A stretch of DNA of 64,000 nucleotides from a virus (lineage: Duplodnaviria > Caudoviricetes). A program made the translations under genes and the position numbers. Positions 57,844 to 58,372 of the stretch are shown here, piece after piece. Position 1 is the stretch's first letter. Every line of letters begins with the position of its first letter. The notes under the pieces were generated by a model that saw nothing but the letters and a program-made list of their open reading frames with translations, did not search any database and was not told where the DNA came from. The stretch covers positions 242 through 64,241 of IMG/VR virus record IMGVR_UViG_3300046817_000863. One strand, given 5' to 3'.

Positions 57844-57889
57844 AAACAAAGAACAGGACTCACGGATCGAAAAGCTACGTGAGCCCTGC
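57844..57889 (-). terminator. Terminator/attenuator after the peptide genes
   Basis: GCAGGGCTCACG-loop-CGTGAGTCCTGT-TCTTTGTTT. Confidence 0.6.
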
Positions 57890-57904
57890 CCCCACTCATC
57901 CGGC

Positions 57905-57964
57905 CTAGGTTCCCCAGACCAGAACAAATTCGATTAGTTGGTAAACGAAATCGAAATCAAACAT
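57905..57964 (-). CDS. 19-aa peptide 2, MFDFDFVYQLIEFVLVWGT
   Basis: AAGGAGG SD; paralogue of peptide 1. Confidence 0.8.
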   Translation of the reverse strand: MFDFDFVYQLIEFVLVWGT

Positions 57965-58021
57965 TCTGTTGCTCCTCCTTTTTTTTTCGGTAAAGCCTCA
58001 GGTACAACACCCGAGTCCAGG

Positions 58022-58081
58022 TTAGGAGCCCCAGATAATAACGAAATCGATCAAGCCAGCCAGAAAGCTAAAGTCAAACAT
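58022..58081 (-). CDS. 19-aa peptide 1, MFDFSFLAGLIDFVIIWGS
   Basis: AAGGAG SD; start overlaps the end of the cro-like gene. Confidence 0.8.
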   Translation of the reverse strand: MFDFSFLAGLIDFVIIWGS

Positions 58082-58325
58082 TTGCTAAGTCTCCTTTCTT
58101 TTTTCTTCGTGCCGGCCTGAACTCCTCGAAACCAGGGCACTCGAGCGCCGCCAGTTCCTTCTCCACCCTCCTGCCCCTGCTGGCAGACTCGCGCTTCAGA
58201 ATCAGCTCCACAAAAGTGCGTGAAACTTGACACTTCGCGGCGATAGTACTCACAGCAAGGCGATTACGATAGCGCCATAGCGCTATCGCCTCATCAGGTG
58301 TTAGTGTTTGGTGTGACAGTGTCAT
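58074..58325 (-). CDS. Cro-like HTH regulator
   Basis: AVSTIAAKCQVSRTFVELIL; first gene of the leftward early operon. Confidence 0.7.
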   Translation of the reverse strand: MTLSHQTLTPDEAIALWRYRNRLAVSTIAAKCQVSRTFVELILKRESASRGRRVEKELAALECPGFEEFRPARRKKKGDLANV

Positions 58326-58343
58326 CCGGTAGTACGTGATCAC

Positions 58344-58372
58344 AGGTTATAGGGATTTAGGGGTAAGGTCAA
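58344..58372 (-). promoter_or_regulatory. Leftward early promoter
   Basis: TTGACC-17-TAACCT. Confidence 0.6.

Follow-up and report, generated by a model that had tools for sequence, protein, structure and literature searches.

Tandem 19-codon reading frames with a peptide-coding signature in the immunity-like region of a temperate phage

The work described here concerns two adjacent and very short open reading frames (ORFs) in the genome of a virus of the class Caudoviricetes (IMG/VR record IMGVR_UViG_3300046817_000863), of which positions 242 to 64,241 were analysed; this stretch of 64,000 nucleotides is referred to below as the window, and all coordinates are given in it. The two ORFs, which are each 19 codons long and follow a small cro-like gene on the minus strand, have diverged from each other in a manner that points to conservation of the peptides which they specify. 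Our preferred interpretation, to which we assign a probability of about 0.4, is that they code for two real, paralogous micro-proteins which act in trans and which bind to a partner located at or within the membrane of the producing cell. An earlier reading of the window, made from its letters alone (viz. the sequence-only reading), had drawn attention to the same ORFs as possible precursors of a diffusible signal or as mimics of a host signal. To our knowledge, genes as short as these are skipped by gene callers and there are almost none in phages to which a role has been assigned.

The two reading frames and the selection acting on them

The two ORFs were delineated by reading of the sequence, by a motif scan and by comparison of their codons. 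Peptide gene 1 (MFDFSFLAGLIDFVIIWGS) is located at 58022-58081 and peptide gene 2 (MFDFDFVYQLIEFVLVWGT) at 57905-57964, both on the minus strand, and the sequence agrees with the earlier description of them as two minus-strand ORFs of equal length and 19 amino acids (aa) at these positions. In both cases a run of A residues followed by GGAG or GGAGG is positioned nine bases ahead of the ATG, which bears out the strong Shine-Dalgarno (SD) sequence that had been ascribed to each ORF. The ribosome-binding region of peptide 1 (58091-58104, minus strand) consists of an A-run and GGAG and lies inside the cro-like ORF, whereas that of peptide 2 (57972-57987, minus strand) consists of a run of nine A residues and GGAGGAG. 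Further, in peptide gene 1 an in-frame TAG is found two codons ahead of the ATG, and in peptide gene 2 the 11 codons which separate the upstream stop from the ATG do not include any start codon. These stops, together with the absence of other possible starts, fix both ORFs at 19 codons. There are 12 ATG ORFs of 12-40 codons following GGAGG or AGGAG in the 64 kb and five sites where an A-run is joined to GGAG, and in each of these sets two are the peptide ORFs. A six-frame scan of the window for the pattern [ILVFM][ILV]WG[STAG] followed by a stop likewise recovered the two peptide ORFs and no third copy. An ORF on the opposite strand (57938-58120; GC content at third codon positions 0.39) was considered and dropped.

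The DNA runs X4 and X6 show no difference from the window in the peptide region. The A-run at 57979-57987 (minus strand) is 9 residues long both in the window and in two DNA runs, and the metagenome contig L002 and one RNA-library contig each have 10 A residues there; this difference, which is outside of any ORF, reflects a polymorphism of the homopolymer or else an error of sequencing.

The repeat scan of the window identified the pair as a 117-nt tandem duplication (family D1). Between the two copies 23 of the 57 coding bases are different, and these changes are distributed as 8, 3 and 12 over the first, second and third codon positions. When the sites are counted by the Nei-Gojobori method, 11.0 of the 11.3 synonymous sites differ (pS 0.97) as against 12.0 of the 45.7 non-synonymous sites (pN 0.26). 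At the level of the peptides, 11 of the 19 residues are identical and there are five further pairs of the kind L/V, D/E, I/L, I/V and S/T. Six of the identical residues (viz. D3, F4, F6, L10, F13 and G18) are specified by different codons; both the 11/19 identity and the use of different codons for identical residues had been noted in the sequence-only reading, and the present comparison adds one residue to its list. In a simulation in which 22 changes were placed at random, at least 11 identities in a frame that stayed open were seen in 0.084% of 100000 trials (P ~0.0008), this chance test being one of two sequences which are both from one phage. The remaining two frames of the duplicated stretch contain stops, and the coding stretches of the peptides fold no better than their shuffled versions (z +1.35 and -0.03). 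As the synonymous sites are saturated with the residues being kept, and as the coding RNA is unstructured, the object that has been conserved is the peptide and not the DNA or an RNA structure. The earlier suggestion of selection on the peptide thus holds, and based on this evolutionary signature it is very likely that the two ORFs are coding.

It could be argued that these ORFs are without function and represent either a decaying duplication or frames which are open by chance, as homologues outside of this phage were not found and as the evidence for their expression is only indirect. However, the saturation of the synonymous sites alongside kept residues, the equal length of the two ORFs and the retention of a ribosome-binding site (RBS) in both copies speak against this. 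Further, the peptide region is free of substitutions in the contigs of two more DNA runs and in one metagenome contig, although these contigs are near-identical copies of one phage and hence constitute weak evidence. We consider it highly improbable that the ORFs lack a function.

Searches for homologues of the peptides

The saturation of the synonymous sites also indicates that the duplication is old, and due to this relatives carrying the pair should exist somewhere. A strict pattern covering both peptides gave no matching stretches in viral contigs. A tolerant pattern (M-[FL]-[DE]-hydrophobic, a variable middle, and then [DE]-four hydrophobic residues-W-G-x-stop) gave none in viral contigs and none in genome contigs, and three stretches in metagenome contigs (L001, L002 and L003). 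One of these contigs, L002, is from the same phage (1022 nt, 99.9% identical, with one extra A), and the other two, L001 and L003, match in the wrong frame and were rejected as chance matches. A pattern for the C-terminal motif in tandem gave no stretches in viral contigs, and one for the MFDF start in tandem gave six, all of which are unrelated repeats. A tblastn search with peptide 1 against GenBank phages and PLSDB plasmids gave nothing even at an E value of 10, and the GenBank phages and plasmids showed no match to the peptide region, to the repressor-like gene or to the Cys-rich domain encoded nearby (both described below). Neither of the peptides matches a family in Pfam, NCBIfam or PHROG. 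Searches for related loci with the cro-like protein, Erf and the large terminase (TerL), and likewise with the aligned sequences of the Cys-rich neighbour and the repressor-like protein, did not lead to any confirmed relative. These null results for homologues are weaker than they sound, as the collections that were searched hold no close relative of the phage. Searches of the literature on peptides or motifs of this kind found nothing in the portions of the sources that they reached.

The transcription unit and its terminator

The two peptide genes appear to be parts of one short transcription unit, which would be the first to be transcribed in the lytic-direction operon and from which the cro-like protein and both peptides would be made together. 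The order of elements in this unit would be the cro-like gene with its weak leader, peptide gene 1 with an overlapping start and a strong SD, a small hairpin, peptide gene 2 with its own strong SD, and a stable terminator. Ahead of the unit there is a promoter-like element (58346-58372, minus strand), which was recognized by reading of the sequence and which consists of TTGACC (58372-58367) and TATAAC (58351-58346) separated by a 15-nt spacer. This element is not listed by a scan for consensus promoters with spacers of 16-18 nt, its spacer being short, and a cro-side promoter at this position is plausible. The hairpin between the peptide genes (57997-58015, minus strand) has 8 bp and lacks a U-tract, and its 60-nt fold has an energy of -17.1 kcal/mol (z -2.33). 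At the other end, an intrinsic-terminator-like hairpin with a U-rich tail is found at 57842-57893 on the minus strand (-28.8 kcal/mol, z -2.07). It begins 16 nt past the stop codon of peptide 2 and it is made up of an 11-bp core (57888-57878 with 57864-57854) and a 13-nt loop, which are followed by TTCTTTGTTTCC. The sequence-only reading had proposed a promoter at 58372 and a terminator at 57889-57844 as the limits of a single short transcript; the terminator stands as a structure, and the promoter stays at the level of a plausible element which the consensus scan missed.

If the two ORFs were cis-acting leader or arrest peptides, then ribosomes on them would set the extent of terminator read-through into the delayed-early genes. 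Their position suits this explanation, as they directly precede the sole terminator that separates the Erf-SSB-primase block from the early promoter, and arrest peptides such as TnaC and the Erm leaders are conserved in their amino acids and can be about this short. However, in an equilibrium model the pair probability of the terminator core is 0.998 in free RNA, and it is unchanged when a ribosome footprint is placed at the stop of peptide 2, when the whole of peptide 2 is blocked or when both ORFs are blocked. The best rival duplex formed with a terminator arm has an energy of -12.9 kcal/mol as compared with -18.6 kcal/mol for the two arms with each other. As pairing in the terminator is unaffected by the blocking of the ORFs and the competitor is weak, no attenuator is seen, and in silico the unit of cro-like gene, peptide 1 and peptide 2 appears to end at a constitutive terminator. 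Further, the 16 nt between the stop codon and the stem, the presence of two tandem copies that each have a strong SD of their own, and the lack of a run of one regulatory codon do not fit with a leader peptide, and we consider an explanation of this type to be very unlikely.

The placing of the peptide genes on a short early unit ahead of a terminator means that the peptides should appear at once upon infection or induction, and due to the position of the terminator they should also outnumber the delayed-early proteins that are encoded behind it. Contigs from two RNA libraries of two studies cover 57968-58158 and 57988-58159, and they stop within one base of each other at a place where the DNA contigs of two other runs continue. 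These RNA-library contigs, which have a depth of 2-4 (~3), are unstranded and could be due to DNA carry-over, are at most a weak hint of a transcript. In the RNA-library runs X15 and X17, those parts of 56000-60300 which lack cover, among them peptide 2 and most of the cro-like ORF, are uninformative in both directions.

Properties of the peptides and their proposed role

Both peptides begin with MFDF and are strongly hydrophobic, with grand average of hydropathy (GRAVY) values of 1.57 for peptide 1 and 1.08 for peptide 2. Neither of them contains K or R, and their net charges are -2 and -3, the acidic or polar residues of peptide 2 being D3, D5, Q9 and E12. The summed transfer energy on the octanol scale, with Asp and Glu taken as charged, is negative for both (-4.9 and -2.2 kcal/mol). 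The helical hydrophobic moments of 0.085 and 0.19 are too low for amphipathic helices. When the sequences are placed on a helical wheel, the invariant residues F2, F6, L10, F13 and W17 are found within 100-180 degrees, and the variable positions 5, 8, 9, 12, 16 and 19 are on the opposite side. The location of the invariant residues on one face suggests a short helix that may pack against a partner. The C-terminal eight residues, DFVIIWGS in peptide 1 and EFVLVWGT in peptide 2, share a common scheme in which D or E is followed by four hydrophobic residues, W, G, and S or T.

Peptides with these properties could also be small toxins that damage the membrane, of the type I toxin or phage-exclusion kind, which would lower the potential across the inner membrane and serve in host shut-off, superinfection exclusion or lysis timing. 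Their length of 19 residues, which is similar to that of the Ibs toxins of E. coli, their very hydrophobic nature with negative transfer energies, and the presence just downstream of two more small ORFs of membrane type (57380-57507 and 56420-56614) are in accordance with such a role. However, each peptide has two or three acidic residues and lacks basic ones, which does not agree with such a role, and the translation of known type I toxins is tightly repressed, whereas the RBS is very strong and exposed in this case. There is also no signal of an antisense RNA, as no promoter-like site was found on the plus strand in 57000-59500, in which the one site detected belongs to the minus strand, and as no Rfam family was matched, with the qualification that the promoter type of the host may differ. 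No small-toxin family of NCBIfam or Pfam is matched either. Thus, although the peptides are like the Ibs-size type I toxins in having about 19 residues, in being hydrophobic and in being of the sort that gene callers miss, they differ from them in being acidic without a basic flank, in their strong and exposed RBS and in the lack of an antisense signal, and a toxin function is regarded as quite unlikely.

Another explanation is that the ORFs are precursors of ribosomally synthesized and post-translationally modified peptides (RiPPs), which would be modified, for example at the conserved Trp, by a radical-SAM enzyme of the phage or by enzymes of the host. The phage does code for a radical-SAM protein with the motif CxxxCxxC (41131-42159), the C-terminal W-G-S/T is invariant in kind, and short RiPP precursors exist (viz. 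PqqA and mycofactocin). However, this only radical-SAM gene is 16 kb away, and its membership of a phage family (phrog_9298) and its position near a DNA-methyltransferase-like gene suggest that its chemistry is on nucleic acids. Families of peptidase, RRE-type and transporter proteins were found in 0 of the 80 ORFs and none is present in the switch region, and no precursor family of NCBIfam is matched. It is extremely improbable that the ORFs are of this kind.

According to the interpretation that we prefer, viz. of two trans-acting micro-proteins, the conserved aromatic face would dock on a protein partner, which might be a membrane or regulatory protein of the host or a switch protein of the phage, and the two copies would represent either variants for two related targets or an increase in dosage. 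Among known peptides, lambda CIII and SpoVM offer a precedent of a small early peptide which biases the choice between lysis and lysogeny by binding to a membrane protease of the host; however, these are basic amphipathic helices of 26-54 aa, whereas the peptides described here have 19 aa, are acidic and have moments of 0.085 and 0.19. The psm-alpha operons similarly contain tandem ORFs of about 20 codons with an SD each and no signal peptide, but in staphylococci their products are amphipathic, have a surfactant-like character and are served by a dedicated exporter, and the phage peptides show no amphipathicity and no exporter was found for them.

Several points weigh against this interpretation. 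The partner is a postulated one, and no homologues were found through which the co-occurrence of the peptides with a candidate partner could be followed. The single-chain models of the cro-like and the ribbon-helix-helix (RHH) protein encoded beside the peptides are poor, with predicted local distance difference test (pLDDT) values of 60 and 52, respectively. Translation of the ORFs and the single transcript are both inferred, and the conserved helix face is that of two sequences, both from one phage. Among known small membrane proteins, a peptide with a net acidic charge and no basic residues on its flanks is also atypical. Lastly, the C-terminal octapeptides fit the form of the mature short hydrophobic peptides (SHPs) of streptococcal type signalling systems, which favours the explanation considered next.

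Comparison with peptide-signalling systems

If the peptides are exported short hydrophobic signals, then DFVIIWGS and EFVLVWGT would be released, taken up again and sensed, and as two specificity variants they would report the density of the phage to the lysis-lysogeny choice. Such signals would be SHP/XIP-like or PrgQ-like with a logic similar to arbitrium, or they would mimic or inhibit a host peptide. In systems of the RRNPP type, the mature peptide corresponds to the last 4-10 residues of the propeptide. As described in PMC3679016, mature SHPs are the C-terminal 8-9 residues of unannotated precursors of 22-26 aa; according to the same account they have Asp or Glu first and are hydrophobic with a Gly-rich end, as exemplified by DILIIVGG, DIIIIVGG and EGIIVIVVG. 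The two octapeptides follow this scheme, which is a resemblance of form, and the presence of two near-identical variants in one genome is described there for SHP2 and SHP3 (PMC3679016). In the account of pCF10 in PMC8265641, prgQ heads an operon that is controlled by a repressor and is followed by terminators which give rise to short transcripts, and the layout seen here is the same. Further, the strong RBS is suited to a product that is made in bulk.

The signature of RRNPP systems, as set out in PMC10075063, includes a small propeptide, a Sec signal or an N-terminus of SHP/PrgQ type that is basic and hydrophobic, and an adjacent tetratricopeptide-repeat (TPR) receptor of 250-500 aa. Of the five features that were compared on the basis of this description, one, the small propeptide, is present here, and the length of 19 aa is inside the default range of 10-100 aa but below the validated range of 21-50 aa (PMC10075063). 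The adjoining proteins are of 83 and 81 aa instead of 250-500 aa. The peptides do not have a basic N-terminus and there is no room in them for a Sec signal. With regard to export and reception, Pfam matches to TPR, peptidase or ABC families were found for 0 of the 80 ORF translations, where a divergent TPR could escape detection, and this agrees with the earlier remark that no receptor is evident in the window. In addition, the systems of this kind that PMC10075063 describes are all from Bacillota, whereas the PEP-CTERM gene of the phage (see below) hints at a diderm host. Neither peptide gave a match to a family of Pfam, NCBIfam or PHROG, and homologous peptides were absent from all of the pattern scans (viral, genome and metagenome contigs) and from the tblastn search. 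The search for homologous ORFs which had been suggested with the idea of a signal led back to the same phage and counts against that idea, although the collections that were searched are without any close relative of this phage, and the claim of diffusible signalling or host-signal mimicry finds no backing in any test made here.

The similarities to known systems deserve to be described with some precision. The peptides are like those of SHP/Rgg and XIP/ComR in being encoded by unannotated ORFs of the ~17-26-codon class, in having no Sec signal and in being strongly hydrophobic, and like SHP/Rgg in the form of the C-terminal 8-9 residues, which are the active part in that system and start with Asp or Glu (PMC3679016), and in the possibility of two variants in one genome. 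They differ in that this phage is without an Rgg or TPR receptor (0 of the 80 ORFs) and its peptides are without an N-terminus of the basic MKK type, in that their end is Trp-Gly-Ser/Thr instead of the Gly-Gly of SHP with no homology found at the level of sequence, and in that the known systems are confined to Bacillota whereas the host here is probably a diderm. In the case of prgQ (iCF10), the likeness consists of a tiny ORF for a hydrophobic peptide that is located behind a repressor-controlled promoter and before terminators, read-through of which yields a long operon, as presented in PMC8265641. However, pCF10, whose host is Enterococcus, has the PrgX receptor and the anti-Q countertranscript, for which no counterpart was found here, and the terminator of the phage shows no sign of regulation in silico. 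The arbitrium system of Bacillus phages (AimP/AimR) also has a phage peptide gene in the region controlling lysis and lysogeny, but there the propeptide has a Sec signal and the adjacent receptor is a TPR protein of 250-500 aa, as given in PMC10075063, and the phage studied here has neither. The resemblances to SHP and prgQ are likenesses in the manner of working and do not amount to membership of these systems. Overall, we regard the exported-signal explanation as unlikely. It is rather unlikely as well that a temperate phage of a diderm soil bacterium uses the peptides to signal, or to inhibit or mimic a peptide signal of its host, through a receptor which is not of TPR/RRNPP type. This would be communication of arbitrium-like logic outside of Bacillota, with two specificity variants and a chemistry similar to that of SHP, in which an acidic residue and a hydrophobic run precede the Trp-Gly-Ser/Thr end; the receptor of such a signal could possibly be the small, translationally coupled helix-turn-helix (HTH) protein itself.

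The immunity-like region surrounding the peptide genes

The cro-like gene (58074-58325, minus strand) codes for a putative small HTH protein of 83 aa, which was recognized from a weak HTH_23 match and from Atlas leads. Its start is most likely the ATG at 58325, the alternative being a GTG at 58343, and its short leader is without an SD; its TGA overlaps the start of peptide 1 (ATGTTTGA). The HTH_23 match (E 0.0058) is below the cut-off, the nearest clusters in the Atlas consist of small viral HTH proteins (0.92), and similarity of the Atlas model to HTH_3 and Cro-C1 clusters is seen at TM scores of 0.48-0.59. A search for homologues of the cro-like protein returned a 59-aa fragment of itself and nothing else. 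The heptamer A AAA AAG at 58098-58104 (minus strand) has the X XXY YYZ phase when it is read in the cro-like frame, and it is located 17 nt upstream of where peptide 1 starts. At this site, a shift by -1 would replace the last 10 residues of the cro-like protein by 17 others and end at 58051. As the frame which is opened in this manner is not that of the peptide, a frameshift fusion of the cro-like protein with peptide 1 was rejected.

The gene that diverges from this unit (58439-58783, plus strand; 114 aa from its ATG) is repressor-like and was assigned to the RHH type from Atlas leads, which point to CopG/Arc/RHH clusters. Its N-terminus reads by eye as a strand/helix/helix pattern that is suggestive of RHH. 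It has no match in Pfam, and its relatives, at 49-57% identity, are found in metagenomes, one of them on a contig of 42964 nt. The AlphaFold2 models of the RHH protein (pLDDT 52.1) and of the cro-like protein (59.9) are poor and unusable, and both fold assignments are to be taken as leads.

Two exact 15-mers, spaced 33 nt apart (repeat family D2), are present between the divergent genes. The first operator-like copy (58386-58400; CTTACCCGTAAACCC on the minus strand) is a direct repeat and an exact motif match, and the second (58353-58367; CTTACCCCTAAATCC) fills the spacer of the putative promoter on the cro side. When as many as 3 mismatches are allowed, the 15-mer motif has 11 matches in 64 kb as against 2.58 expected, and 6 of these 11 are located within 58353-59157 on both sides of the RHH gene. 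Four of them, with 2-3 mismatches each, form a second operator-like cluster in the motif scan at 58890-59157, which is 0.5-0.8 kb from the first. The region of about 730 nt that follows the RHH gene (58784-59516) is without a convincing ORF; besides these four motifs it contains a terminator-like hairpin (59047-59022, minus strand) and is covered in part by an RNA-library contig (58999-59150, run X17), and it may be a second control region or code for a small RNA.

The divergent small proteins of DNA-binding-like character, and the repeated putative operators which overlap a promoter-like element, correspond to the layout of lambdoid-type immunity, and the region looks like an immunity region. 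In view of this anatomy, the earlier description of the peptides as wired into the lysis-lysogeny switch is fair as a description of their place, which the divergent HTH and RHH genes and the operator-like repeats bear out.

On the other side of the terminator, the first gene (57504-57749, minus strand; 81 aa), which was assigned to no family by sequence reading and profile searches, opens the delayed-early block, in which Erf, SSB and PrimPol-helicase follow. In the neighbouring ORF (57175-57507, minus strand), relatives from metagenomes with 66-76% identity cover the Cys/His-rich C-terminal 65 residues only (57175-57375), starting from MKVIYRG, and the first 40 residues, which are hydrophobic, occur in this phage alone; the N-terminal part may be a small membrane peptide that is either fused or separate.

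The phage and its host

The source record is of 64241 bases, belongs to the linear class and has a completeness of ~92% and a GC content of 57%, and the window represents nearly all of it. Almost all of the long ORFs are on the minus strand. The gene content is that of a temperate phage, with a match to the tyrosine integrase family at 39360-40556 (E 5.2e-16, profile search of ORF translations), and the record also codes for Erf, SSB, a PrimPol-helicase, a DUF5131 protein and a large terminase of T4 type. One further ORF matches the resolvase N-terminal domain (E 4.6e-37), indicating a serine recombinase besides the tyrosine integrase. Scans of the window for tRNA genes and Rfam families found none. 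The radical-SAM protein discussed above (41131-42159, minus strand; phrog_9298, E 1.4e-46) is separated by ~1.2 kb and three small ORFs from a gene at 43310-44662 (minus strand) for a 450-aa protein, which matches a DNA-methyltransferase family in PHROG and has five W-x-T-P...D repeats. Both genes are near the integrase and they may form a DNA-modification module.

The phage sequence is present in soil and rhizosphere runs, of which 20 are listed from 17 studies, with 6 on record as RNA. The contigs of X4 and X6, which are soil or rhizosphere runs from different studies, show 0-2 differences from the phage over several kb within 56000-60300, and the phage sequence is notably uniform and widespread, given that the runs are from 17 studies.

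With regard to the host, a 153-aa ORF (53021-53482, minus strand) contains a PEP-CTERM sorting motif, which scored 22.6 bits in Pfam against a curated cut-off of 20.7, 20.8 for TIGR02595 against a cut-off of 16, and 25.2 bits in a six-frame search; ~30 residues follow the motif. PEP-CTERM is found together with exosortase-bearing diderm bacteria, and this gene hints at a host of that kind. That a phage should carry an exosortase substrate is unusual. TerL and the primase gave distant matches only (<60% identity) against GenBank phages and plasmids, with hosts from many phyla, and due to the distance and spread of these matches no call of the host is made.

Significance

The pair of peptide genes described here combines an unusually clean evolutionary signature of translation with the position in a temperate phage that matters most for the lysis-lysogeny decision. 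If it is true that the peptides bind a switch protein or a target in the host, then they would represent a new class of very small effectors of the lysis-lysogeny choice. If they should instead be exported signals, then phage peptide communication would for the first time be known outside of Bacillota.

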